Shown in pieces: positions 7,915 to 64,000 of a DNA stretch of 64,000 nt. Position 1 is the first letter of the stretch. Each line of letters opens with the position of its first letter. Under the pieces are notes generated by a model that did no database searches, had not been told where the DNA came from, and saw nothing but the letters and a program-made list of their open reading frames with translations. Both the position numbers and the translations under genes were made by a program. Origin of the DNA: Dictyostelium discoideum (lineage: Eukaryota); the NCBI GenBank assembly GCA_000004695.1, contig CM000151.3, positions 4,128,001 to 4,192,000 on the forward strand. Reading direction: 5' to 3'.

Positions 7915-9426
7915 TTTTTTATTTTTATTATTATTTTTATTGTTATTAATATTATAACTGGTTTCTCCTAAAAATAATAATACTACTACTACTACTTTTT
8001 TTACTACTACTAATAATGTTAGGTTTGAGCTTTCTTTTATTTAAACTTTGGGTTCTCTTACTACTAATTTTGTTGTTATTATTGATGATTTGAATTATAT
8101 TATTCTTTTTACTTTTTTCACTAAACATAATGCAGGGTTTTTTTAAGTTATAAAGTTTTTTTTTATTTATTTCTGTTATCTCTCTTTTTTTTTTTTTTTT
8201 TGTAATTTTTTTTTTTTTTTTGTGTGTGTTATCGTATTGCAATGTGCTACTCTTTTTGAATTTTTTATTTTTTTTATTTGTTTATTATTATTTTTTATTT
8301 TTTTGTGAGTGTGTGAATGTGGGAGTGAATCAAATTAATAAGAAGAATATTATTTAATTATTTTTTATTTATTTATTTTTTTTATTATTATTTATTATTT
8401 TTTTATTTTTTTTTATTTTTCTTTTTTTATTTTTTCTTTGTTTCTATAGAAAAAAAAAAAAAAAATTTTATTTTAATATTACTACTATTGTTAGTATTTA
8501 TTAAAATAACGTATTTAAGGATAAAAAAAAAAAGTTGCTTATATTAAAACACCTCTTTTATTATATTATTTTTTTTAGTATTATTATTATTATAATATTT
8601 TTTTTTTTTCTGTTTTCTCTATATTTTACTTCAAATAATATCTCTCTCGTTATTTGATGATGATTTAAATTGAAAAAAAAATAAAAAAATAAAAAAAAAA
8701 AAATAAAAAAAAATTAAATAAAAAATTTCAAATAAAATTAATTTTTTTTATTTTTTTTTTATTTTTATTTTTTTTTTTTTTTTATTGCTCAATGATTTTT
8801 TAATCACCAAAAAAAAAAAAAAAAAAAAAAAAGATATTTCGCCTTAAAAAGAAAGAAAATAACTGAGATTTGAAAGAATATTAACTTCAAAACAATTTAC
8901 TATATATTAACATTTTTTTATTTTTCTTTTTTATAATTTTATTTTTTTTTTTTTTTTTTATTTATACCAAAAATAATATTAAACAGTAATTATTTTTCCT
9001 CTTTTTAAAAAATTAAACATTAAACAATTAAAAAAATAATTTAGAGAAAAATAACCAAAAAAAATAAAATTTTAAATTAGATAAAATAATAAAAAAAATT
9101 AAAAAATAAAAATAAAATAAAAACAAAATATCTGAATTTTCAAAAAATAAGTTTGGATAAACACACATTCCCACCTGCAAATTTTTTAAAAATAAATGAA
9201 ATTGAACATCGAGTTTTCTTTTTTCTTTTTTTTTTTCATTTTAATTTTTTATTTTAAAAATAATATTTTCGTTCGCGAACAAAATAAAAAAAAAAGTAAA
9301 AAATAAAAAGAATTGAATAAAATAACAAAATAAGGAACATTCTATCTAATACTTTTAAAAATTTATAAATCAAGTAAATAATTAAAAAAAAGTAAATAAA
9401 TATTAAAAAGTAATAATACACAAACT

Positions 9427-10932
9427 ATGGATTATAATTCAGAATATGAAGGTTTTTCAGATAATGCCATTAGACTATTAAGGTAATTATAATTATATTT
9501 ATAATTATTTTTATTTATTTAATTTATTTAATTTATTTTCTAATAATAAATAAATAAATAAATAAATAAAAGTGCCCCAAAAGGTAATTCAAAATTAGCA
9601 ATGGCACATTTTATAGCAATGTCAGATTTATATAATTCAAAGAATAATCCAAATGGATATATTAGTTTAGGTATTGCAGAGAATGTATTATCATATGATA
9701 TATTGAAAGAGAAATTAATATTTGAAAGTGACGGCAATGATGGAAAAGAGATAATGGCAGCAGCAGCACCACTACAAAGTTTAACTCAATATAGTGAAAT
9801 AGGAGGTATACCACAATTAAGGGAATTAATAGCAAAAGAGTTATTACAAAATCAAATTTTCAAAGGGTACAAACCAACCAATGAAAAACTGTTGGTTAAA
9901 AAAGAGCAAATATTAATATCAGGTGGTGCAACACCATTATTAGAGAACATTTTCAATTTATTTTGTAATCAAGATGAAAAGTGTATTATACCATCGCCAT
10001 TTTATCCATCATTCGTCTATGACGCATATCAAAGATTTGGTGTAAAAGTTATCGCTGCAAAATCGGAAATTTTCAAAGACCCACTCAATAAAGGTACTAG
10101 TGAAATCATAGATTTCAAATTAGATTTAAAAGAATTTGAATCACTATACAACCAAGGTGGTGTTAAAATGGTACTACTCTGTAACCCAAACAATCCAACA
10201 GGTTACATCTTTAAACCAAGTGAAATTAAAGAACTAGTTAAATGGTGTAGAAATAAAAAAATTCATTTTGTTAGTGATGAAATTTATGCATTGTCAGTAT
10301 TTGGTAGTGAAGATGGTAGTGATGGTGGTAATGAATTTAAAAGTATTTACGAAATACTTGAAGGTGATTTAGGAGAATATGTACATGTGTTGAATGGATT
10401 TAGTAAGGATTTCTGTTTGAATGGTTATAGAATCGGTTATTTCTATTCACAGAATGAGACGGTTTTTAGATACATGTTATCTACAAGTGCATTTTATAGT
10501 TGTTCAAATATCGCTCAATATACTGCTATCAACATTTTAAAAGACAGAGAATACTTGGAACGATTCATTAAAACAAATCAATCAAATTTAAAAGAATCTT
10601 ATGAATTTGCTTCAAATTTATTAAACCAATATTCAATTCCATTCATTAAATCATCAAGTGGTGTCTTCCTATCATTGGATTTACGTGCTTGTTTAAAATA
10701 TTTACCAAATGATACTACTACTGATGACGATCAAGATAATACTGATCCATTCTCAAAAGAAATTAAATTGTGGGAAGAAATTTTCAAAAATAAAGTTTTC
10801 TTAAATAGTGGTAAACTATGTTATTTTGAAAAACCTGGTTTCTTTAGACTAGTTTTCACTCTACCAAAAGATTTCATTGAACAAGGTATTAAAAGAATTG
10901 CTCAAGTTTATAATTCATTATTAAATAAATAA
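9427..10932 (+). CDS. 1-aminocyclopropane-1-carboxylate synthase-like PLP-dependent aminotransferase (fold-type I, ACS family), 2 exons, 471 aa
   Basis: Exon 1 9427..9482 (MDYNSEYEGFSDNAIRLL, donor AG|GTAATT), exon 2 9573..10932 (acceptor AAAAG|). ACS hallmarks: NPNGYISLGIAENVL, ..NPNNPTG.., and SKDFCLNGYRIGYFYS with the PLP-binding Lys. Total 1416 nt = 472 codons. Confidence 0.85.
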
Positions 10933-11215
10933 ATAAATAAATAAAAATAAACATATACAACACACACTATTTAATTATACTTTATTGATGGTGATGGTGA
11001 TGATGATGATGATGGTAATGGTGATGTTTTCAAGTTTATAACTCATTATTAAATAAAAAAATAAAACATATAGGACACACTATTTTTATTAATAATAGAA
11101 ATTTATTTAATTTTGTTTAATTGATTTTTGAAGTTTATGATATAAAATAAAATTTAATATAAATTTTGAATGAGTTTTGTAATTATATTTTATTGGTGGT
11201 GATGGTGGTGATGTT
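10901..11215. repeat. Tandem duplication (about 130-180 bp units) of the ACS gene 3' end / 3' UTR, including (GGTGAT)n mini-repeats
   Basis: caagtttataaTtcattattaaataaa..acatatacaacacacactattt..ttgatggtgatggtgatg (10904-11000) recurs as caagtttataaCtcattattaaataaa..acatataggacacactattttt..ttggtggtgatggtggtgatg (11038-11215) with an about 90-bp insertion. Confidence 0.7.
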
Positions 11216-11226
11216 GGTACGGTGTT

Positions 11227-13041
11227 TTAATAAGCATCATAAGCATTTTCAACGATTAATTTAGCTTGAGCAACTATTTCTGGATTAACAGTATAGTCAG
11301 CTTGTTGACCATTAATTTGACGAATAACTTCTTGTTCTAATTCAGAAGTGATTTCAAAAGCAGCTTCTGCCAAATCTTGGTTTTCAATTTCTTCTGGAAC
11401 CAATTGACGTTTAGAAACACCTAATCTGGCGAATAAACCTGGGTTTTCAGCATCTTCTTGATTATTACCATTTAAACCAAGACCAATATCAAGACCTAAT
11501 AAATCATTAGTATTTTCTTTTTCTTGTCTTGATTTTCTACCTTGTCTACCTTGTTTTGATTTTCTTGATTTTCTTGATTGACTTTCTTCAACTTTCTTAT
11601 TAACATTGTTTTCATTTTGATTTTGTTCTTGATTAGCATCATTCACTTGATTATCACCATTTTCTTGATTATCTTTGTTTTCTTGATTAGCTTTGTTTTC
11701 TTGATTAGCTTTGTTTTCTTGGTTTTGTTTGTTGGCAACGTTTACATCAGTTTGAATTGCAGCAGATTGTTTAGAGTTTTCACTTTGTTTTTGTGCAGCA
11801 TTATTTCCAATTTCAATACTTAGAATTGATTTATTGTTGTTTTTTTCTTGTTGATTTTGTTGAGCTTGTTGGTTTTGTTGAGCTTGTTGAGCTTGTGGAT
11901 TTTGTTGAGCTTGTTGATTTTGTTGAGCTTGTTGATTTTGTTGAGCTTGTTGATTTTGTTGAGCTTGTTGATTTTGTTGAGCTTGTTGATTTTGTTGAGC
12001 TTGTTGATTTTGTTGAGCTTGTTGATTTTGTTGAGCTTGTTGATTTTGTTGAGCTTGTTGAGCTTGTTGAGCTTGTTGAGCTTGTTGATTTTGTTGTTGG
12101 TTTTGTTGAGCTTGTTGTTGATTTTTTTGTTGTTGATTTTCTTGTTGATTTTGTTGTTGTTGTTGATTTTGTTGATTTTGTTGTTGATTTTGTTGACCCA
12201 AACCAACTTCAATGTTTAAAATTGATTTGTTACTATTTTGTTTTTGGTTATTTTGTTTATTCAACTCTTCTTGTTGTTGATTATTTTGTTGATTCAATTT
12301 TTCTTGTTGTTCATTCTTTTGTTGACTCAATTGTTCTTGGTTTATTTCTTGTTTTTCATTTTGTTCTTGTTTTTCATTCACTTCTTGTTTTTCGTTCACT
12401 TCTTGTTTTTCATTCACTTCTTGTTTTTCATTCAATTCTTGTTTTTCATTCACTTCTTGTTTTTCATTCACTTCTTGTTTTTCATTCACTTCTTGTTTTT
12501 CATTTTGTTCTTGTTTTTCATTTTGTTCTTGTTGAATTTTGCTTTGATTATTTTTATTTTCTTGATTGTTTTCTTGATTGTTTTCTTGATTGTTTTCTTG
12601 GTTTTTTTCTTGATTGTTTTCTTGGTTTTTTTCTTGATTGTTTTCTTGATTGTTTTCTTGATTTTCTTGATTAAGTTCCATTTCTAGATCTTGGAAATTA
12701 TGAGTGGCTTCAATTTGTTTAATTTCTTTATCCAAGTTATTTTCTTGTTCATTTTCATAATTGTAACCTTCATTCCATTTTTTATTAACGATTGACCATT
12801 CTGGATTTTGTTCATTATGATTTTCATCAAGGACCATTAAATGGAACATGTTCTTCCATTCATCAACGTATTCTTCCATTGATGCCAATCTATTATAGAT
12901 TGATTGTTGATATGGATTCAATTGAGTTTGGTCAATATTTTCAAACCATTTTTGTAATTTAACATCAGTAGTGGCACACTAGGAAAAAGAAAAAAAAAAG
13001 AAAAAAAAAAAGAATAAAAAAAAGAAAATTAATTTTAATAA

Positions 13042-14215: not shown

Positions 14216-14464
14216 TTATTTTTTATTTTTTTTTATTTTTTTTTTATACATACAATAAATTCTTTTTTCAGTAGAAGTAGCAAAAAATAGACAAGTTTCA
14301 GATTCAATTTTAAGTTGAGCTCTATGATAAATATCTAATAGAAAGGGTTTCTTTTTATTAAGTTCTGCCATTGATCTTTCTTTAATTTCTTTAATTTCTC
14401 TTATTTCTCTATCTTTATATTCTTGAATTGCTTTTAAATATTCCACATTTGACATTCTATTCAT
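14216..14464 (-). CDS. Small novel protein, paralogue A (first exon 14464..14254 is certain; 3' end unresolved)
   Basis: MNRMSNVEYLKAIQEYKDREIREIKEIKERSMAELNKKKPFLLDIYHRAQLKIESETCLFFATSTEKRIY, then donor T|GTATGT at 14253 splitting a codon after its first T. The ORF-track tail (CMYKKKIKKNKK) is probably intron read-through. Shares about 60% identity with the gene at 15227..15496. Confidence 0.5.
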   Translation of the reverse strand: MNRMSNVEYLKAIQEYKDREIREIKEIKERSMAELNKKKPFLLDIYHRAQLKIESETCLFFATSTEKRIYCMYKKKIKKNKK

Positions 14465-15114
14465 TTTTTTCTTAATTTATTTATTTATTTTTATTTGATT
14501 ATTTATTTTTTTTTAAAAAATTTATTTATTTTAATTTTTTTTTTATTTGTTTATTTATTTTTGTTTTTATTAAAATTACGTAATTTAAGTATAAATAAAT
14601 TAAATTTTATTTTTATATTAAACTGGGTATTTGATTAAAAATAAAAATAAAAAAAAAAAATTATTTGAAAAAATAAATTAAAAAAAAAAAAAACCATTTA
14701 AAATATTTTAAATCTTTTCCCAGAGAAACAGAAAAAAAAACCAAACCAGGAATTTTATTATTCACGAATGATAGGATTTTGTCGACAGAATAAAAATAGT
14801 AAGAAAATGTGAAAATAATAAATGTTAACCTTTCGACAAAGTAGCAAAATAGTTAAAAAAAAAAATAAAAAATAAAAAAAAAAAAAAATAAAAAATAAAA
14901 AACAAAAAATAAAATAAAATAAAAAAAAAAAACTCTGATCAAAACAAAAATATTTTTTTTTTATTTTTTTTATTTTTTTTTTTTTATTTATTTATTTATT
15001 TAATTTATATTATTACAAAAAGGATTTAAGTAAAATGTTTAAAAAATTATAAGCACTAAAAATACATAAAATAAAGAATAATATGTCTGTATTATTATTA
15101 TTATTATTTCATTT

Positions 15115-15226: not shown

Positions 15227-15496
15227 TTATTGTTTTTTTTTTTTTTGATTAAAAAAAAAAAAAAAAAAAATCAAAATTATACACATACAGTAAACACTTT
15301 TTTCTTGTGTAGTACCAAAATATACACCAGTTTCGGCATCTATTTTAAGTTGGAATCTATTTATTCTATCTAAAAGTGATTTCTTTTTATTAAGTTCAGC
15401 AAGAGATTTCTCTTTAATTTCTTTAATTTCCTTAACTTCTCTTTCTTTATATTCTTTAATTTCTTGTCTATATGAGGAATTTGACATTTTATTCAT
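15227..15496 (-). CDS. Small novel protein, paralogue B (first exon 15496..15289; 3' end unresolved)
   Basis: MNKMSNSSYRQEIKEYKEREVKEIKEIKEKSLAELNKKKSLLDRINRFQLKIDAETGVYFGTTQEKSVY, then donor T|GTATGT at 15288 at exactly the homologous position and phase as paralogue A. Same strand, about 1 kb apart. Confidence 0.5.
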   Translation of the reverse strand: MNKMSNSSYRQEIKEYKEREVKEIKEIKEKSLAELNKKKSLLDRINRFQLKIDAETGVYFGTTQEKSVYCMCIILIFFFFFFNQKKKKQ

Positions 15497-16031
15497 TTTA
15501 TTATTTTATATAATTTAATTATTTATTTGAAATTTTATCAAAAACACTTTATTATATTATTATTATACAGGTCGGGGTTTATATATATATATATATGTAC
15601 CGGTGACTGGTAATTATGGCTATCACTTATAAAAAGCCTGTGTGATTATTTACAGTCTGTTTTTGAAAAAAAAAGAAAAAAAAAAAAAAAAAATGAAAAA
15701 ATAAAAAAAAAAAAAAAAATAAAAATAAAAATAAAAAAAAATAAAATTTGTAAAAATCTAATGGAAGACATAACATTGCTTTAAAATTTAAACAGTAACC
15801 TTATAACATGCACCAACCAAAAAAAGATTTCTTTTTTTTTTTTTTATAACAAATCAGGAAATTTTAAAAATTTTTTTTTTTTTTTTTTGTTTTATTTTTG
15901 ATTTGTTTTGATTTTTTTGTTTGATGTTTTTATTTGCACTATTATTCTTTCTCTGTTTTTTTTTTTTTTTTTTTTTTTGTTTGATTTGTGTGTACTTTTA
16001 CTTAATTTTTTTTTTTTTCTTTTCTCTTTTT

Positions 16032-36216: not shown

Positions 36217-36826
36217 CCCTGGGGGGTTTTTTTTTTTTTTTTTTTTGGTTTCAAATATTAATTAAAATATTTATTATTCTTGAAAAAATTATAAATAAAA
36301 TAAATTTTTATAAAAAATATTTATATTATTATTATTATTATTTATATAATTATAATTTAAATATTGATATAAGTGTATATATAAAAAAAAATTATTTTTA
36401 TTTTTTTATTTATTTTTATTTTGCTTATTGCGTTTTTTCTGAAATGAAAAATAAAAAACTATTGCTCAAGATTTTCATTTTTTTTTTAAAAATATTTTTT
36501 TTTGACCATTTTTAAAATTATTTTTTTTTATTTTTTTTTTTTTTTAAAAAAAAGTTTTTATTTTTTTTTATTTTTATTTTCTTTTTTTTTATTTTTTTTT
36601 TAAAAAAAATTACAGTTGCTGAGGTGGTTGTCCAACTGAAAAAAACTTAAAAAAAAAGAAATCAATTTATCCAAACCCACTTTCTCGCATCTACTCATCC
36701 CAAATCGTTAGATCATCGAATATTCCAAATTAAAAAAAAAAAAAAAAATTAAAATTTAAAAAAAAAATAAAAAAAAAAAAAGAAAATTTTAAATTTTTAT
36801 TGTATACACTAATAAACAAAAAAAAA

Positions 36827-37996
36827 ATGTCGTCTCTGAGTAATTTAAAAGAACAATTAGAAAAAAAGAGGAAAGAAGCACAATTAAAGAATAGTAATAA
36901 CAACAACAACAACAACAATAACAATAGTAATAGTAATAATGGTTGTGATAAAAGTGAAGAACCAGCAACAAAAAAATATAAAACTAGAGGAGAAATTGAT
37001 AAAGAATTAAAACAAAAAAAAGAAGAAGAAAGAATAAAAAAAGAAAAAGAAAAAGAAAAAGAAAAAGAAAAAGAAAAAGAAAATTATAATAATAATAACA
37101 ATTCAAATGTAAATAGTAATAAAAATGAAAATAATATAAATATAGACAATGATAATGATAGTAATGATAAAATAAATAAATTAAAAGAAAATGAAGGATT
37201 TTTACCAGATATAGTTGTAATTCAAAGATTAAGAGAAAGAAGTCAACCAATTACTTATTTTGGAGAAACATCAATTGATAGGGCAATGAGATTAAAGAAA
37301 TTAGAAGAGAATGATCCGATAGAGTATACACAAGGTGATAATGAATTTGCAAATATTTTAAAACAAATTGAACAAAGGAAAATGAAAAAACATCAAGACA
37401 GTGCCGATAATGAGAAAGAAAAAGAAGAAAATGAAAATAATGATAAAAAAAAACAGCAACAGCAACAAGAGAATGAAGAAAGTGAGGAGCAGGAGTTGGA
37501 GAGATTGAGAATTGATTCTAGTAAATGCAAAGAATCTAAAATTTTATACTTTTTAAAGGGTTTGTTAAATGATTGGATTACAAATTTAGAGAATCGATCA
37601 GACGATGAAAAGAAATCGAGACAGGGTAAAATCGCCGAAGCGACCTATTACCAATGTAAATCGCATATTCAGCCACTATTTACATCGTTGCGAGAGAAAA
37701 CCCTATCCATTGATATATTGGAGCATATTAATGAGATTGTTGAGTTTTGTAAATCGCGTGAATACGTTCGTGCAAATGATGAGTATCTTCAAATGGCAAT
37801 TGGTAATGCACCTTGGCCAATGGGTGTCACTATGGTTGGTATTCATGAACGTTCAAGTAGAGAGAAAATCTTTTCGAATCAAGTAGCTCATGTACTAAAT
37901 GATGAAATGCAAAGAAAATACATTCAAGCTGTCAAACGTTTAATGACATTTTGTCAAACTCAATACCCAACTGCTCCAAGTAGAAGTATTGGTTAA
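36827..37996 (+). CDS. Pre-mRNA splicing factor Prp18 (PRPF18 homologue), single exon, 389 aa
   Basis: MSSLSNLKEQLEKKRKEA.. start (ATG 36827; an upstream in-frame ATG at 36800 is less likely given the Prp18 N-terminus). C-terminal Prp18 domain: MAIGNAPWPMGVTMVGIHERSSREKIFSNQVAHVLNDEMQRKYIQAVKRLMTFCQTQYPTAPS, near-identical to human PRPF18. Confidence 0.85.
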   Translation: MSSLSNLKEQLEKKRKEAQLKNSNNNNNNNNNNSNSNNGCDKSEEPATKKYKTRGEIDKELKQKKEEERIKKEKEKEKEKEKEKENYNNNNNSNVNSNKNENNINIDNDNDSNDKINKLKENEGFLPDIVVIQRLRERSQPITYFGETSIDRAMRLKKLEENDPIEYTQGDNEFANILKQIEQRKMKKHQDSADNEKEKEENENNDKKKQQQQQENEESEEQELERLRIDSSKCKESKILYFLKGLLNDWITNLENRSDDEKKSRQGKIAEATYYQCKSHIQPLFTSLREKTLSIDILEHINEIVEFCKSREYVRANDEYLQMAIGNAPWPMGVTMVGIHERSSREKIFSNQVAHVLNDEMQRKYIQAVKRLMTFCQTQYPTAPSRSIG

Positions 37997-38060: not shown

Positions 38061-38130
38061 TTTTTTTATAAAATTAAAATACATAACTTTTTCTCATTTA
38101 GTCACTAATTTTCCTTAAAAAGCCATTATC

Positions 38131-38180
<50 letters not shown>

Positions 38181-38281
38181 ATATTTAAAGGAATTTAAAA
38201 ATATTAATAAAATATTTTTTGAAATTGTTTTCCAAAATTATACAAGAATTTAAAAAGTTTGACTAAGAATCTTGGATTGTC

Positions 38282-38315
<34 letters not shown>

Positions 38316-38500
38316 ATAAAGTTCAATTACTAAAATGGATATTTTTTTTAAAATAAAAATATATTACACTACAAATACATATATAACTTTTTCTCATTGA
38401 GTTACTAATTTTCCTTTAAAAGCCATTATCAATTGAAAAGAAAATTAAAATATTTTTTGAAATTGTTTTCAAAAACTTTACAAGAATGTAAAAAAAAAAA
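38061..38500. repeat. Direct duplication of an about 170-bp non-coding element (copies about 38061-38260 and about 38330-38500)
   Basis: ataactttttctcatt[t/g]ag t[c/t]actaattttcct(t)aaaagccattatcaatt .. aaaatggatattt .. aatattttttgaaattgttttc(c)aaaa..tacaagaat[t/g]taaaaag appears twice in the same order, about 300 bp apart, downstream of Prp18. Confidence 0.7.
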
Positions 38501-46380: not shown

Positions 46381-48090
46381 ATGGCAACAAAAGGATTAAA
46401 TATGGATGATTTAGATCTTTTATTAGCAGATTTGGGAAGACCAAAGAGTTCAATAAAAGTAACAGCAACTGTTCAAACAACCGCTACACCATCAAGTGGT
46501 AAAAATTTTGATAATAGTGATATTCAAAATGAAATTCAATCAATTATTGAAGAATTGGACCAACAACCACAAACCGTTCAAACCATTAGTACACCAGCAC
46601 CAAAAAATCATAATACAACCACCACAACTGCAAGTTTCTCAGTTTCATCACAACCAGCACCACAACCACCACAACAATCACAACAAATTGATGGTTTGGA
46701 TGATTTGGATGAATTGATGGAATCATTGAATACATCAATCTCAACTGCACTCAAAGCAGTACCAACCACACCAGAAGAACATATTACACATGCCAATTCA
46801 AATTCACCACCACCATCATTACATAAGAATACATCTTCAACCAATTCTGCATCTTCATTATCACGCCCAAATAATAATCCAAGTGTTGTTTCAACACCAC
46901 AACCAGGAAAAGTTACATCAACTGCAACCATTACCACTAAAAAACAACCAGCACTTTCAAAAGCAACTTTGGAAACAACTAGTGGTAATAATGTATATAG
47001 TTCACAACCATCACAATCACAACCACAACCATATAAAGTTACAGCAACTAATTCACAACCAAGTAGTGATGACCTTGATGAATTATTAAAAGGTCTTAGT
47101 CCATCCACCACTACTACCACTACTGTACCACCACCAGTTCAACGTGATCAACATCAACATCATCATCAACATCAACATCATCATCATCATAATCCAAATC
47201 ATAATCAAACTCAAACTGTAACAACACAAATTAATATTGGTAGAACAAATACTCCAAACAATAACAATAACAATAATACAAATTCACCAAAAGTTGTACA
47301 TGGTGATGATTTAGATAATTTATTAAATAATTTAACATCACAAGTTAAAGATATTGATTCAACAGGACCAACATCACGTGGTACATGTGGTGGTTGTCGT
47401 AAACCAATCTTTGGTGAAACTATTCAAGCAATGGGTAAATTCTATCATCCAGAACATTTCTGTTGTCATAATTGTCAAAATCCATTGGGTACTAAAAACT
47501 ATTATGAACAAGAATCATTACCACATTGTGAAAAATGTTATCAAGAATTGTTTTGTGCACGTTGCGCTCATTGTGATGAACCAATCTCTGATCGTTGTAT
47601 CACTGCTTTGGGTAAGAAATGGCATGTACACCACTTTGTTTGCACTCAATGTTTGAAACCATTTGAAGGTGGTAATTTTTTCGAACGTGATGGTCGTCCA
47701 TATTGTGAGGCCGATTTCTATTCAACATTTGCCGTTCGTTGTGGTGGTTGCAATTCTCCAATTCGTGGTGAATGTATCAATGCTTTGGGTACTCAATGGC
47801 ATCCAGAACATTTTGTTTGCCAATATTGTCAAAAGAGTTTCACAAATGGTCAATTCTTTGAATTTGGTGGTAAACCATATTGTGATGTCCATTATCATCA
47901 ACAAGCTGGCTCAGTTTGTTCTGGCTGTGGAAAAGCTGTCTCTGGTCGTTGTGTAGATGCTCTTGATAAAAAATGGCATCCAGAACATTTTGTTTGCGCT
48001 TTCTGTATGAATCCATTAGCTGGTGGTTCTTATACCGCTAATAATGGTAAACCATATTGTAAAGGTTGTCATAATAAATTATTTGCTTAA
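46381..48090 (+). CDS. paxB: Paxillin homologue: 4 LD motifs + 4 C-terminal LIM domains, 569 aa, single exon
   Basis: LD motifs MDDLDLLLADLGR, IDGLDDLDELMESL, DDLDELLKGL, DDLDNLLNNL. Four tandem LIM domains (CGGCRKPI..HPEHFCCHNC.., CARCAHCDEPI..HVHHFVCTQC.., CGGCNSPI..HPEHFVCQYC.., CSGCGKAV..HPEHFVCAFC..CKGCH). Length and architecture match D. discoideum PaxB. Internal ORFs 46496.., 46790.., 47354.., 47663.. are other-frame artefacts. Confidence 0.9.
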   Translation: MATKGLNMDDLDLLLADLGRPKSSIKVTATVQTTATPSSGKNFDNSDIQNEIQSIIEELDQQPQTVQTISTPAPKNHNTTTTTASFSVSSQPAPQPPQQSQQIDGLDDLDELMESLNTSISTALKAVPTTPEEHITHANSNSPPPSLHKNTSSTNSASSLSRPNNNPSVVSTPQPGKVTSTATITTKKQPALSKATLETTSGNNVYSSQPSQSQPQPYKVTATNSQPSSDDLDELLKGLSPSTTTTTTVPPPVQRDQHQHHHQHQHHHHHNPNHNQTQTVTTQINIGRTNTPNNNNNNNTNSPKVVHGDDLDNLLNNLTSQVKDIDSTGPTSRGTCGGCRKPIFGETIQAMGKFYHPEHFCCHNCQNPLGTKNYYEQESLPHCEKCYQELFCARCAHCDEPISDRCITALGKKWHVHHFVCTQCLKPFEGGNFFERDGRPYCEADFYSTFAVRCGGCNSPIRGECINALGTQWHPEHFVCQYCQKSFTNGQFFEFGGKPYCDVHYHQQAGSVCSGCGKAVSGRCVDALDKKWHPEHFVCAFCMNPLAGGSYTANNGKPYCKGCHNKLFA

Positions 48091-56903: not shown

Positions 56904-56945
56904 ATGGATAATCATCATAGTAATTTAAACCACAATAACAATAAC

Positions 56946-56987
<42 letters not shown>

Positions 56988-57660
56988 TTACAAAGAATTA
57001 CAAAATCATATTCATTAAGTGTAAATATTTTATACAATTTTTTGAAATTAAACAAATAATATTAAAAAGTAAAAGATTTAATGTTAATTAAATATTATTT
57101 TTTATAAAAATTTTAGAATGAAGATTTAACACCAAATTCAAAGCCACAACAACAACTACAACAACAACAACCGATTTATTATTCACCTCCATATTCTAAT
57201 AGAGTGATACCAATTGAAAATAGAATCAGTGAAGAAGATAATAATAATAATAATTTTCATTATTTCAATCCAATACCTATTCATCATAACCAACAACAAC
57301 AACAGCAACATAAACAGCAGTTAATGACCAGATCAATATCACCTGGAATACTTAATAATAATAATAATGTTTTATCATCTTCACCAACTTCGACACAGTA
57401 TAATGTATCCTCACCTTTATCAATAAATAATGGTAATAATAAAAAATCAACATCAAAAACATCATTACATAAAAGATCAAATTCACATGGATTACCACCA
57501 AAATCAATATTTCATCATTCGCCTCCTAATAATATTCAAAGTGTATCTTATTTATCACCTTTAATATATACTCAACAACATCAACAACAATTTAGTATTA
57601 GATCAACACCTCATTCTCCAAATATTCTTTCTCCTCCAATTATACCATCACAACATTTAC

Positions 57661-57715
<55 letters not shown>

Positions 57716-58490
57716 CTCAACTACCACTACTACCACTACCACTACCAATAGTAATAACAATAACAATAACAACAATAATAATATTATCACATCCCAACAA
57801 TTACCACCACAAAGCATTTCTTCAATTGTAACTCCAACAACCTCATCACCAATAATAAAGAAAAGAATAGCTAGAAACATTTCTCATACACTTGATGGTA
57901 GTACTATTTTCAATGGTGGTTCTTTTCCCCCAATTCAATCTTCACCATTACATCATGACTCTCCTCCAATTTCACCAAGATTATCAATAAACAATAGTGG
58001 TAATAATAATGATAATAATGACATCAATCATAGAAGGGCTGTATCATGGGAACCACCACTTCAAGGAAAATCGTTAGAAACCTTAAATCAAATTATTAAA
58101 GAGAAAAAAGAGGCACTCATTCAAAGAGAAAAAGAATTAATGCAAAAACAAAAACAATTGGAACAAGAATTCATTCAAAGAAGGGAGAATTTAACATCTT
58201 CTCCACCTATTAATATTCAATCACCATCACAACCACAACAACAATCAATACCCATACCAATTCATTCATCACCAATTCAACAACAACAGCATAGTTACCC
58301 ATTATCACCAAATAATAATAATAACACAGGTTCCTTTATAATCAGTCCTTCATTGAGTTCATGTTCATTACAATCGCAACAACAACAACCACAGCAGCAA
58401 CAACCTCGACCAATTTTAAAACATAATAGATCGAAATCTGATACAAATACAGTTATTAAACTACAACAATTACAACTACAGCAGCAACAA

Positions 58491-58531
<41 letters not shown>

Positions 58532-59443
58532 ACAACAACAACAACAGCAGCAGCAGCAGCAACAGCAACAACAACAACAATTACCAAAAAAGATTTATCC
58601 ACACTCTGTTGTTTTTTCATCGAATGGAAATGTTGGTTATAGTCAAACTCCACCAATTTCATCACAATCAAGTAGTGCAATCTTTTCACCAACATTATCT
58701 CATTCAACATCAAAATATCATCATGAAAAATCAAAATCTGCACAATTTTCTTCACCAAAAATTAACTCTATACTTTTAACTCAAATTTTGCAACAACATC
58801 AATTACAACAACTACAGCAACAACAGCAACAGCAACAACAACAACAAATTTCAACAGTTTCAGGTGTACCAATACCTTTGCCAATTTCAAGTTCAAATAA
58901 TAATAATAATAACAATAACAATGTTAAAGTACCAAGAAGAAAGTCAATTGACCCTCTCACCTATATATCATTAAACTCTCACCTTCAACCAATTTCCAGT
59001 AATAATAACAACAACAATAATAATAATAATATAAATAAATCATTTAAAAATCCTGTTACAGTTCAATTTTTAAATTCACTTCAAGCAATGAATATAGATG
59101 AGTTTGAAGAGGAATTGGATAAAGAAATTCAACAAGTCATTTTACAAACTAAAAATATTCAAGGTAAAATGGAATTATTAGAAAGAGTAAGAGTAAGTAT
59201 TCTTTTTTTTATAACAAATAGATATCAATTTTTTAAATATTAATTTTTTTTTATTTTTTTTTCCAAAAAAAAAAAAAAAAAGTGTGCTGCACCAGATCCA
59301 TTATTAATGTTATTTGGAGAGAATTGTAAAAATGTAATTGATAAAAAATATAATCATTCTCAGAATAATAGTGGTGTTAATAGTACAAATAATAATGTAT
59401 CATCAACTATGGTTATTCAATCACCACTTTTATCTCAAGTTTC

Positions 59444-59487
<44 letters not shown>

Positions 59488-59544
59488 ATAATAACAATAG
59501 TAGTAATAACAATAATAATATTAATAATAATAACAATAGTAACA

Positions 59545-59627
<83 letters not shown>

Positions 59628-59897
59628 TCATCTGTAATCTTATCAATACCACCTTTACCAATATCACAACAAAAATCTCCATCAATTTTATCTCCATCAC
59701 TTTTATCGCCAACTCTTCAAAATTATCATCCAACATTTCAAGATACCAGACCTCATGGTATTCCAACAAAAACATCAAGAAAGAAACCAACAAATATTAA
59801 TTCTAGATGTCCTGACAAAACGAAAAGTAAGAATTTAAATCCTTCTCTTGTTCCACGTGCTTCTGCATTTAGTCCTCCTCCACGTCCAGTTAGTTAG
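56904..59897 (+). CDS. Q/N/S-rich low-complexity protein (935 aa) with one predicted coiled-coil segment, 3 exons
   Basis: Exons 56904..57020 (MDNHHSNLNHNNN..ITKSYSLS, donor AGT|GTAAAT), 57117..59192 (the ORF-track start at 57204 is an internal GTG; coiled-coil LETLNQIIKEKKEALIQREKELMQKQKQLEQEFIQRREN; donor AGA|GTAAGT), 59283..59897 (acceptor A17-AG; ends ..SAFSPPPRPVS*). Total 2808 nt = 936 codons. No domain recognised. Confidence 0.55.
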
Positions 59898-60016
59898 GGT
59901 ATCTATCTTTTTTTTTTTTTTTTTTTTTTTGGTGGTGAATCATTAATATTTTTTCCAGTCTGAATCATATGTAATGATTACAGATTACTTGCTTGTAAAT
60001 AATTTAATTATCCCTT

Positions 60017-60054
<38 letters not shown>

Positions 60055-60719
60055 AATAATAATAAATTAATAATAAATAATAAAAAAGTTATAAAATTCA
60101 AATAAAAATCTAAAATTTTATTTATTTTATTTGTATTCTTTTTTTTAAAGGTCTCAATTCAAAAAATAATAATTAATTAGTTAATTTTGTAGTGTTTGAA
60201 AAAAAAAAAAAAAAAAACCTTTTCACAAAATATTTTTTTGTTTTATTTTATTTTTAAATTTTTTAAAATTCCAAATATGGTGATTCACAATTTATTATTT
60301 TACTCAATGAGATTATTTAACCCACAAAAGGAAAAAAAAAAATAATAAAAAAAACAATTATTATTTATTTATAAATAAAAAAATTATAATTTTTATTATT
60401 AAACCAAAAATAAATAAATAAATAAATAAATAAATAAAAAATAAATAAATAAATAATATAAGAAATGGATAAAATAGAGCTAAAAGATACAAAACGAAAA
60501 TAAAAAATTCATTGAGCCCCAATCAAAATTACTTAGAGATCAGATTTATTATTTTATCAATAATAAAAAAACCAAATATTATTTCTATGAAATTATTTAA
60601 AACAATATTAATGGAAATCAAAACGGAAGAAGATATTAGAAAATTTAAAAAAGTAAAAAAAGAAATAATTTCTTACAAAAAAGAAATAATTTCTTATAAA
60701 AAAATAACTCCATATAAAA

Positions 60720-60761
<42 letters not shown>

Positions 60762-61045
60762 CTGATAAAACGAAAAGTAAGAATTTAAACCCTTCTTTTC
60801 TCCCCCATGCTTTTGCATTTAGTCCTCCACGTCCAGATAGTTAGGGTATCAATCTTTTTTTTTTTTTTTTGGTGATTACTTGTAAATAATAAAAAAAATT
60901 AATAAAAAAGTTAAAAAAATTCAAATAAAATCAAAATTTTTTTTTTTTATTTGTATTCTTCTTTTTAAAGGTCTCAATTCAAATAGATAATAATAATAAA
61001 TTAGTTAATTTTGTAGTTTTTGATAATAAAAAAAAAAAAAAAAAA
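59815..61045. repeat. Segmental tandem duplication: last 80 nt of the preceding CDS plus 3' flank (about 59815-60240) re-copied at about 60762-61045
   Basis: Copy 1 acaaaacgaaaagtaagaatttaaatccttctcttgttccacgtgcttctgcatttagtcctcctccacgtccagttagttagggtatctatc(T)n..ttgtaaataat..aaaaagttataaaattcaaataaaaatctaaaatttt..tttgtattcttttttttaaaggtctcaattcaaaaaataat..ttagttaattttgtagtgtttga. Copy 2 gataaaacgaaaagtaagaatttaaacccttcttttctcccccatgcttttgcatttagtcctccacgtccagatagttagggtatcaatc(T)n..ttgtaaataat..aaaaagttaaaaaaattcaaataaaatcaaaatttt..tttgtattcttctttttaaaggtctcaattcaaatagataat..ttagttaattttgtagtttttga. Confidence 0.8.
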
Positions 61046-61205
61046 AAAAAATACTGACACTACAAAAGTTGTATTCTGAAAGAAAGCACACCAAAAAAAA
61101 AAAAATTAAAATAAAATAAAATTAATAATAAATTAAAATAAAACAAATAAAAAGAAATTAAAAATTCATCACAGTAAAAAAAAAAAAAATTAAAACAATA
61201 AAAAA

Positions 61206-61483
61206 ATGGTATTTTAAAATATAAAATAAAAATAACTATTGATAATAAAGCTAACAAATAAACTTATTTAAAAAAAAAACAAAAAAAAAAAAAAAAGAAT
61301 AAATTTAGGGCATTAGTTTTAATTATTATAATTATTTTTTATAGTAACTCGGTATTATCTGAACATAAATATAATCAATGTTATATGGATTGTTTAGAAA
61401 ATGCTGGTTGTTCTCAAAATATGAAAAAAAGTGATATCTGTAATATTTTAACTCACGAATGTAATCTCAATTGCGATAACTAA
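61206..61483 (+). CDS. Small secreted Cys-rich peptide 1 (62 aa); exon 1 is only the ATG
   Basis: ATG 61206-61208 followed directly by GTATTT donor; acceptor A16-AG at 61296-61297; exon 2 61298..61483 encodes NKFRALVLIIIIIFYSNSVLS (signal) EHKYNQCYMDCLENAGCSQNMKKSDICNILTHECNLNCDN*. 6 Cys in the mature part. The phase-0 join gives 189 nt. Confidence 0.5.
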
Positions 61484-61719
61484 AACAAATAAAAATAAAC
61501 ACCCTTTTTACAATATTGAATTATTTTGTTTTTATTGTATTTTAATTAATTTTTTTTATTATTTTTTTTTTTTTTATTTGGTGGTAAATTATATAATTTA
61601 CATTTTTTTAGATTGGCAATGATAATTAATTGTTAAACATAATAATTTATTATAATTTTATTTTCAAATAATGGTTTATTAATTATTTTATACTTTTTTT
61701 TTTTTATTATTGATTTTTT

Positions 61720-61756
<37 letters not shown>

Positions 61757-61824
61757 AAAAAAAGAAGTATAAAAAAGAGGAAAAAGAATAAAAATTAAAT
61801 TTAGTAAAAATTAAAAAATTCAAA

Positions 61825-62109
61825 ATGGTAAGAATTTTCCTTTTTTTTTTTTTTTAATACTAATTAGTGTTTTTATTAATTTTTAATTATTAGAATTATA
61901 AATTATTATTAGTTGCAATTATTGCATTTTTAGCATTAATGTCATCAAATCAAATTTGTATGGCAGATGTTGAAAGTGATCACAAAGAATGTATCAAAAA
62001 ATGTTTGAAAGATAATGGTTGTTCAGATGATGATGGCAAAGAAATCGATAAAAAAGAATGTATTAAATATACTTTCAAATGCCCAAAAGATTGTTTAATT
62101 AAAGATTAA
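61825..62109 (+). CDS. Small secreted Cys-rich peptide 2 (72 aa); exon 1 is only the ATG; paralogue of peptide 1
   Basis: ATG 61825-61827 | GTAAGA..; acceptor TTATTAG| 61892-61893; exon 2 61894..62109: NYKLLLVAIIAFLALMSSNQ (signal) ICMADVESDHKECIKKCLKDNGCSDDDGKEIDKKECIKYTFKCPKDCLIKD*. Shared pattern [ED]HK..C...CL[EK][ND].GCS..C.{6}C...C. Confidence 0.55.

Positions 62110-62322: not shown

Positions 62323-64000
<1,678 letters not shown>

Follow-up and report, generated by a model that had tools for sequence, protein, structure and literature searches.

A partial copy of a gene 3' end in Dictyostelium discoideum, a probable neutral relic of old local duplication with short homology at its boundaries

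FoSTeS, MMBIR and serial replication slippage can each place a duplicate in the same orientation as its source, but not adjacent to it, in a single event that leaves microhomology at the junction. [quoted passage not shown] Distances between the microhomologies have been surveyed over a range of 3-500 nt, and the units in ssp1 are 55-92 bp long (PMC8639346). In D. discoideum itself, rates of gene duplication are low and changes in copy number are enriched in AT-rich regions (PMC9849192), and the measured mutation rate is very low (PMC7466956). We examined a 64,000-nt stretch of D. discoideum DNA (referred to here as the window), which is 21.5% G+C and contains many polyN/polyQ-coding tracts and long A/T runs. 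Such an AT-rich composition is typical of D. discoideum and its close relatives. Within the window, a unit of ~410 bp that consists of the last 83 coding nucleotides of one gene (gene A), its TAG stop codon and ~320 bp of downstream flank (copy 1) is present a second time (copy 2), ~950 bp downstream and in direct orientation. The duplication is a new instance of a well-known type of event. In our view, copy 2 is probably a neutral relic. It would stem from a local DNA-level duplication that is old and has short homology at its boundaries, and a second step would account for the spacer that now separates the copies.

The original prediction for this locus, that the 3' end of a gene and its flank had been copied again ~950 bp downstream, was borne out by a strict self-BLAST of the window with dust filtering, which recovered two repeat blocks. 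Block 1 (59812-59923 vs. 60762-60870) is 88.4% identical (E 7e-26) and block 2 (60078-60217 vs. 60900-61041) is 89.0% identical (E 2e-29); together they rank highest among the six off-diagonal matches. Self-BLAST with +1/-1 scoring was discarded, as AT-rich pseudo-alignments dominate its output. A composition-aware log-odds local scoring, with ~200 real segments from the same window as controls, gave z = 35 for block 1 and z = 30 for block 2. With the T- and A-runs trimmed off, the z-scores against the same controls were still 34.5 and 28.5, respectively. Therefore, the similarity is not an artefact of low complexity, and the concern voiced with the prediction, that only A/T runs might be alike, did not materialize.

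A gapped alignment of the two copies contains 260 matches and 19 substitutions in 279 aligned pairs, which is 93% identity when substitutions only are counted. The position originally given was nearly exact, but the homology starts at 59812 rather than 59815, takes in 83 coding nucleotides and the TAG, and runs from 59812 and 60762 into A-runs at 60217 and 61051; copy 1 spans 59812-60217 and copy 2 spans 60762-61051. Relative to copy 1, copy 2 is missing ~60 nt (about 59924-59985), ~65 nt that include the A35 run (about 60004-60072) and one in-frame CCT. Its T-run is ~10-13 nt shorter, and it carries small insertions of ATAG and TAAT. Both copies also share a few nucleotides in the middle, tggtg..attacttg(c)ttgtaaataa. 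The A24 that ends copy 2 aligns with a genomic A20 (60198-60217) at the homologous position in copy 1, and therefore the A-run of copy 2 was copied from DNA. An assembly artefact is excluded by the 88-93% identity and the several indels between the copies.

No homology was found beyond these limits in any of the extension comparisons. The left flank of copy 1 (59628-59811) has none with 60500-60761 (z = 0.4), the spacer (60218-60761) scored at the control mean against 61046-61900, and the DNA that follows copy 2 yielded only A-rich matches to copies 1 and 2. Comparison of the distal spacer with the conserved flank block was not significant, nor was that of spacer positions 60480-60620 with block 1 outside a 21-nt island described below. 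On these comparisons, both a hidden third copy and a 950-bp unit with an intact second half were rejected.

Gene A (56904..59897, + strand) has exons at 56904-57020, 57117-59192 and 59283-59897. Its GT..AG introns, read off the sequence, give an open CDS of 2808 nt for a protein of 935 aa that is rich in polyN and polyQ. Protein searches returned matches in dictyostelids only, and gene A has orthologues in D. purpureum, Polysphondylium violaceum, Tieghemostelium lacteum, Heterostelium album and one EukProt entry; no Pfam domain is on record for these orthologues. Most of the protein is of low complexity, and the extreme C-terminus is one of the few islands kept across dictyostelids. This C-terminus reads RCPDKTKSKNL..LPR(A/S)SAFSPPPR. 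The motif CPDKTKSKNL..LPRxSAFSPPPR is kept in five other dictyostelid proteins when the N-terminal part found in D. purpureum is counted: all four distant orthologues have it, and D. purpureum (tail sequence CPDKSKSKNLNPSLMPRASAFSP) has the N-terminal part of it, through ..PRASAFSP. The coding part of copy 1 (59812..59897, + strand), i.e., the last 83 coding nucleotides and TAG, encodes (P)DKTKSKNLNPSLVPRASAFSPPPRPVS followed by the stop. Copy 1 encodes exactly the conserved tail and is the functional end of gene A. The 3' flank of copy 1 (59898..60217, + strand) contains a T29 run, the A35 run, a conserved block (60078-60197) and the terminal A20; 57 nt of the flank are unique to copy 1, and four AATAAA hexamers lie at 60061-60101. 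The duplicated span holds no intron, and hence offers no intron-loss criterion for a retrocopy.

The former coding part of copy 2 (60762..60844, + strand) forms a pseudo 3' end that translates as SDKTKSKNLNPSFLPHAFAFSPPRPDS followed by a stop. It differs from copy 1 by 9 substitutions and a 3-nt deletion. Invariant residues of the tail have been lost (R to H, S to F, and PPP to PP), and every amino-acid difference between the copies is derived in copy 2. An (AAT)14 microsatellite (60720..60761, + strand) adjoins copy 2 and places TAA stops in its frame. Copy 2 appears to be a dead, promoter-less 3' fragment without a start codon, because in-frame TAA stops precede it and invariant residues are lost. 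The upstream in-frame TAA and the loss of invariant R, S and P also rule out a functional coding paralogue or an alternative terminal exon. The flank of copy 2 (60845..61051, + strand) consists of a T16 run, a conserved block (60900-61018) and the terminal A24, without the two larger segments seen in copy 1; AATAAA hexamers were duplicated together with the flank.

By tblastn, the D. purpureum and P. violaceum loci each contain a single copy of the tail, and therefore the duplication is specific to the D. discoideum lineage. A 23-mer common to both copies had no match in metagenome or prokaryotic genome contigs. Substitution divergence between the copies is 6.5% overall (Jukes-Cantor K = 0.068), with 10.8% in the former coding part vs. 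4.7% in the flank, a difference that is not significant (Fisher p = 0.066). The base-substitution rate published for D. discoideum is 2.47e-11 per site per generation (PMC7466956), and at that rate K translates to ~1.4e9 generations; the duplication is old, on the order of roughly 1e9 cell generations. With 7% divergence and indels between the copies, collapse to a single copy is now unlikely.

Short homology is present at the boundaries of the repeat. One element, h1 (59812..59828, + strand; CTGACAAAACGAAAAGT), lies at the start of the unit, and the other, h2 (61054..61069, + strand; CTGACACTACAAAAGT), lies just past copy 2 and matches h1 at 14/17 positions (extended match, CTGACAAAACGAAAAGT vs. 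CTGACACTAC-AAAAGT). On its + strand, the window has the hexamer CTGACA at two positions only: 59812, where it begins with the first base of copy 1, and 61054, 2 nt past the A24 of copy 2. At 60762, copy 2 itself begins with CTGATA, one substitution from CTGACA. The resulting layout is h-X-h-X-h, with h at 59812, 60762 (one substitution) and 61054. In a scan of ~12,700 overlapping windows, only 0.13-0.16% of the control windows matched the start of the unit as well; this test of junction homology was post hoc, with p about 0.002 and only 6 exact bases. In D. purpureum, the codon within CTGACA reads GAT where copy 1 has GAC, and in principle CTGACA in its exact form might have arisen only after the duplication. 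The GAT of D. purpureum is weak evidence, since these genomes use GAT by default and the two species are saturated for changes at synonymous sites.

These observations fit better with a duplication bounded by short homology than with a microsatellite mechanism. In the sequence of events that we consider probable, the ~410-bp segment from the last 83 coding bases through the stop codon and flank would have been copied downstream in direct orientation, with the short homology CTGACA(N4-5)AAAAGT marking the boundaries of the duplication at h1, the start of copy 2 and h2. The h-X-h-X-h layout could have arisen by slippage during replication, by a template switch or by unequal exchange, acting between two dispersed short homologies as in MTD. 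The downstream copy, without promoter or start codon, would then have decayed, and gene A would have been left intact because the stop codon lies within the duplicated unit. The 544-bp spacer between the copies is at odds with a simple tandem duplication in one step. Three routes to the spacer may be envisaged. Two adjacent ~410-bp units could have been separated by a later insertion or expansion of 544 bp between them; a 950-bp unit could have been duplicated, followed by the precise loss of the second spacer copy (the distal half); or a single two-jump template switch (backward, then forward) could have taken place beside h2. Taking the spacer as secondary, the homologies are ~410-420 nt apart; taking it as ancestral, the distance between them is 1242 nt (59812 to 61054).

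The spacer (60218..60719; 544 bp, 60218-60761, when (AAT)14 is counted) is AT-rich and lies between the copies. It holds no credible ORF. A search of both strands of the 64-kb window found no other copy of the spacer, and no terminal inverted repeats were seen on it; the idea that the spacer is a mobile element was dropped on these two grounds, as far as the window goes. An h-like island within it (60489..60509, + strand; ACAAAACGAAAATAAAAAATT) matches the start of the unit at 18/21 positions, 12 of them consecutive and exact. Four other loci in the window, and no more, match the start of the unit to the same degree, and the island is one of them. No homology was found beyond 60489-60509, and the island may be a chance match.

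The duplication had originally been attributed to microsatellite-mediated slippage or unequal exchange. Under that explanation, the polyN-coding (AAT)n tract in the last exon of gene A (59547..59627, + strand) would have misaligned with an (AAT)n tract downstream, the intervening DNA would have been duplicated, and copy 2 would later have been trimmed by deletions. Some of what was predicted holds: (AAT)14 at 60720-60761 does adjoin copy 2, and the parent exon does contain a long (AAT)n tract. Simple repeats amount to 12.5% of the window, and slippage mutations occur at a high rate in D. discoideum (PMC7466956). However, the polyN tract does not adjoin copy 1 but ends 184 nt before the homology begins, and these 184 nt have no counterpart before copy 2. 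Nor is there an AAT tract after copy 2, where A24 and TA are found instead, and the repeat-X-repeat-X-repeat footprint is absent. The microsatellite explanation also leaves the CTGACA..AAAAGT match at the exact outer boundary unexplained and needs at least two further precise deletions. We consider this explanation unlikely.

We also examined whether the flank block (60078-60197 vs. 60900-61018), or the whole of copy 2, has been retained under selection. Such an element might provide gene A with a backup terminator or with an alternative poly(A) region, or act as a promoter of the next gene downstream (61207..61483, + strand). The latter, with an ATG and an intron read from the sequence, would encode a small, Cys-rich protein whose start resembles a signal peptide; it has a paralogue at 61825-62109 and had no Pfam match. 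Copy 2 is positioned 156-445 nt upstream of the ATG at 61207, and its flank 156-362 nt upstream; the AATAAA hexamers were duplicated, and the flank is the less diverged part of the copy. However, the two divergence values do not differ significantly, and base composition can account for the gap between them. The flank shows no conservation with D. purpureum, and neither the D. purpureum nor the P. violaceum flank can be aligned, as both have diverged too far. No Rfam match was obtained for the whole window at the gathering threshold, or for 59300-61700 at E<=1, and folding of the conserved flank block was no better than that of shuffled sequence (z-scores -0.3 to +0.4). A DUSE-like motif in the spacer, ACCCAYAA, is no commoner than chance would have it (3 observed vs. 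4.2 expected). The Rfam, motif and folding results led us to reject an RNA gene in either the flank or the spacer. In addition, ~125 nt of the flank, including A35, are gone from copy 2, and its coding part has decayed at invariant positions. Selective retention is therefore improbable in our view, and copy 2, which from its sequence would seem to have no function, is most probably a neutral relic. A more ambitious proposal is that a compact intergenic region, formerly shared, was split by the duplication, with copy 1 retaining signals for 3'-end processing and termination of gene A and copy 2 retaining regulatory sequence upstream of the Cys-rich gene, and that recurrent local duplication bounded by short homology is a main route by which AT-rich intergenic DNA grows in Dictyostelium and regulatory regions come to be duplicated; we regard it as unlikely.

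It is highly improbable that copy 2 is a retrocopy, i.e., a 5'-truncated, polyadenylated gene A mRNA that was reverse-transcribed by non-LTR machinery and inserted nearby, or that A24 represents its poly(A) tail and CTGA(T/C)A a target-site duplication: copy 2 does begin within the CDS, end in A24 and lie between CTGATA on its left and CTGACA on its right, but the A-run has a DNA template in the genomic A20 of the source, the homology continues ~110 nt past the last AATAAA of copy 1 (60101 to 60217), the left "target-site duplication" itself belongs to the homology with the source, copy 2 is not dispersed but shares the orientation of its parent and lies only 865 bp downstream of it, and a retrocopy origin is out of the question for two further local head-to-tail duplications in the window.

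Those two duplications were detected in a masked, composition-aware scan in which each 120-nt segment was compared with the 3 kb that follow it, distant DNA serving as the null. The scan identified many in-gene coding repeats and three non-coding events in the 64-kb window. One is a purely intergenic duplication of ~300 bp (38079-38378 and 38379-~38598) that starts 83 nt past a gene with a Prp18 domain. The other (10902-11029 and 11030-11224) agrees with the second event that had been predicted at 10.9-11.2 kb, which is real and head-to-tail; the gene, named there as ACS, is a class I/II aminotransferase, and the last 31 nt of its CDS are included. Both the 38.08-38.6 kb and the 10.9-11.2 kb events are direct and head to tail. 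Neither has significant junction homology, and the junction-homology footprint was dropped as a general rule because these two duplications lack it. Run on a total of 35 kb from the two loci of D. purpureum and P. violaceum, the same scan found nothing. The phrase "recurrent local duplication of 3' regions" describes this window fairly. Local duplicates would recur because they are tolerated, as a copy that spans the stop codon spares the gene and intergenic duplicates are nearly neutral.

Taken alone, a single partial-gene duplicate that is fixed and decaying is of little importance. Its value is that of a clean natural example, since the duplicated coding tail is invariant across dictyostelids and the ancestral state can be polarized. 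The short-homology footprint survives at the boundaries despite ~7% divergence, and the case corrects the intuitive account of "microsatellite slippage" in a repeat-rich genome. It also illustrates that duplications spanning a stop codon are tolerated, the parent gene staying intact. Short-range duplicates and their junctions, surveyed genome-wide, could reveal the turnover of intergenic DNA in D. discoideum.

Compared with known systems, the locus resembles MTDs in its direct orientation and in being a local event, and also in having a short sequence at the start of the unit and again after the second unit, the homology being present three times (59812, 60762 and 61054). With a secondary spacer, the unit of ~410-420 nt would fall within the 3-500 nt range as well. 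Unlike MTDs, the units are not head to tail but 544 bp apart (60218-60761), and adjacency requires a later insertion or deletion. The MTD is a reversible, subclonal variant, whereas the event described here is ancient and fixed; the unit is much longer than the ssp1 examples (55-92 bp), and the statistical backing for its microhomology is post hoc only. The non-adjacent copy in the same orientation, and an insertion point beside the slippage-prone (AAT)14 and an A-run, are shared with template-switch rearrangements. However, clear microhomology is present here at one junction only, and the templated insertions and inversions of complex template-switch events were not seen. Copy 2 looks like a processed pseudogene or retrocopy in being a 5'-truncated fragment that ends in an A-run and has a short direct repeat on both sides, but it differs in that the A-run is templated at the source and in that the copy passes the likely poly(A) signals and lies directly downstream of its parent. 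Partial-gene (3'-fragment) tandem duplicates known from population surveys, for example in Drosophila (PMC4069613), differ in scale, which is much smaller here (~0.4-1 kb), and in composition, the D. discoideum genome being extremely AT-rich; a chimeric transcript, for which the sequence of this locus gives no sign, is another apparent difference. The likeness to these partial-gene duplicates lies in the architecture: one gene boundary is spanned, and an intact parent is accompanied by a decaying, promoter-less fragment.

Copy 1, the functional end of gene A with its 3' flank (59812-60217), and copy 2, its decayed duplicate (60762-61051), have not diverged evenly along their length. Substitutions between them amount to 10.8% in the former coding part and 4.7% in the AT-rich flank, roughly a twofold difference that is not significant (Fisher p=0.066). 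The greater divergence of the coding part may stem from a higher mutability of G- or C-containing positions, or it may be due to chance. The two copies also differ by an indel, a stretch of 57-60 nt (59924-59985) found only in copy 1 and bordered by TGA/TGATTAC microhomology, which is consistent with slippage on a small scale within the duplicate. Inside this segment lie a small direct repeat, made of two occurrences of TGAATCAT 28 nt apart, and the short hairpin AATCAT..ATGATT.

Within the 544-bp spacer that separates the copies, ACAAAACGAAAATAAAAAATT at 60489-60509 resembles the start of the duplicated unit, matching it at 18 of 21 positions, 12 of them consecutive and exact. Across the 64 kb window, just four other loci match the unit start this well, 60489-60509 being one of them, and no homology extends past this island. 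It could be a chance match or the final trace of an older copy.

A second duplication that takes in the end of a coding sequence and its 3' flank lies at 10902-11224, where units of about 128 nt are arranged head to tail. A class I/II aminotransferase CDS (9601-10932) contributes its last 31 nt to the duplication, together with its 3' flank, and the second unit holds about 100 nt of additional sequence. The flanking genes are convergent, the one on the minus strand ending at 11227, and no significant homology was detected at the junction. A further head-to-tail duplication, of approximately 300 bp (38079-38378, then 38379 to about 38598), consists entirely of intergenic DNA and begins 83 nt past the stop codon that ends a Prp18-domain gene (36800-37996). 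Its core shows 92% identity between units over 62 nt, and the second unit is without an A-run and about 40 nt.

Our masked, composition-aware scan, which compared each 120-nt segment with its next 3 kb, also found a periodic coding repeat with a period of 177 nt (47386-48064), periodic repeats of 48-117 nt in a Q/N/E-rich gene on the minus strand (11834-12650), and two similar stretches offset by about 1035 nt (14242-14473 and 15277-15505), which resemble tandem paralogues or domain repeats. On the plus strand, an ORF at 62323-63300 contains a polyHis stretch at 62651-62765, encoded by a (CAT)n run about 45 codons long. Within the coding sequence of this ORF, 62774-62853 also recurs at 62990-63063 (about 92% over 36 nt), the peptide motif being YGS(L/F)DIS(R/K)Y(L/I)LN.

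Downstream of copy 2 are two small Cys-rich genes in tandem (61207-61483 and 61825-62109), with signal-peptide-like starts and an apparent build of ATG, intron and single exon; neither had a match in Pfam. For the gene at 61207-61483, no canonical GT..AG intron was found that joins the start codon with the open reading frame ALVLIIIIIFYSNS...CDN*, and the gene may be a pseudogene or have an unusual gene model.

Finally, the D. purpureum orthologue of gene A lies at 8594-10582 of locus L001 (GL870983.1), where the annotation gives no more than a 163-aa fragment, DICPUDRAFT_93901. Since conserved islands of the full gene reach, by tblastn, about 1.4 kb farther upstream, this public gene model looks truncated.
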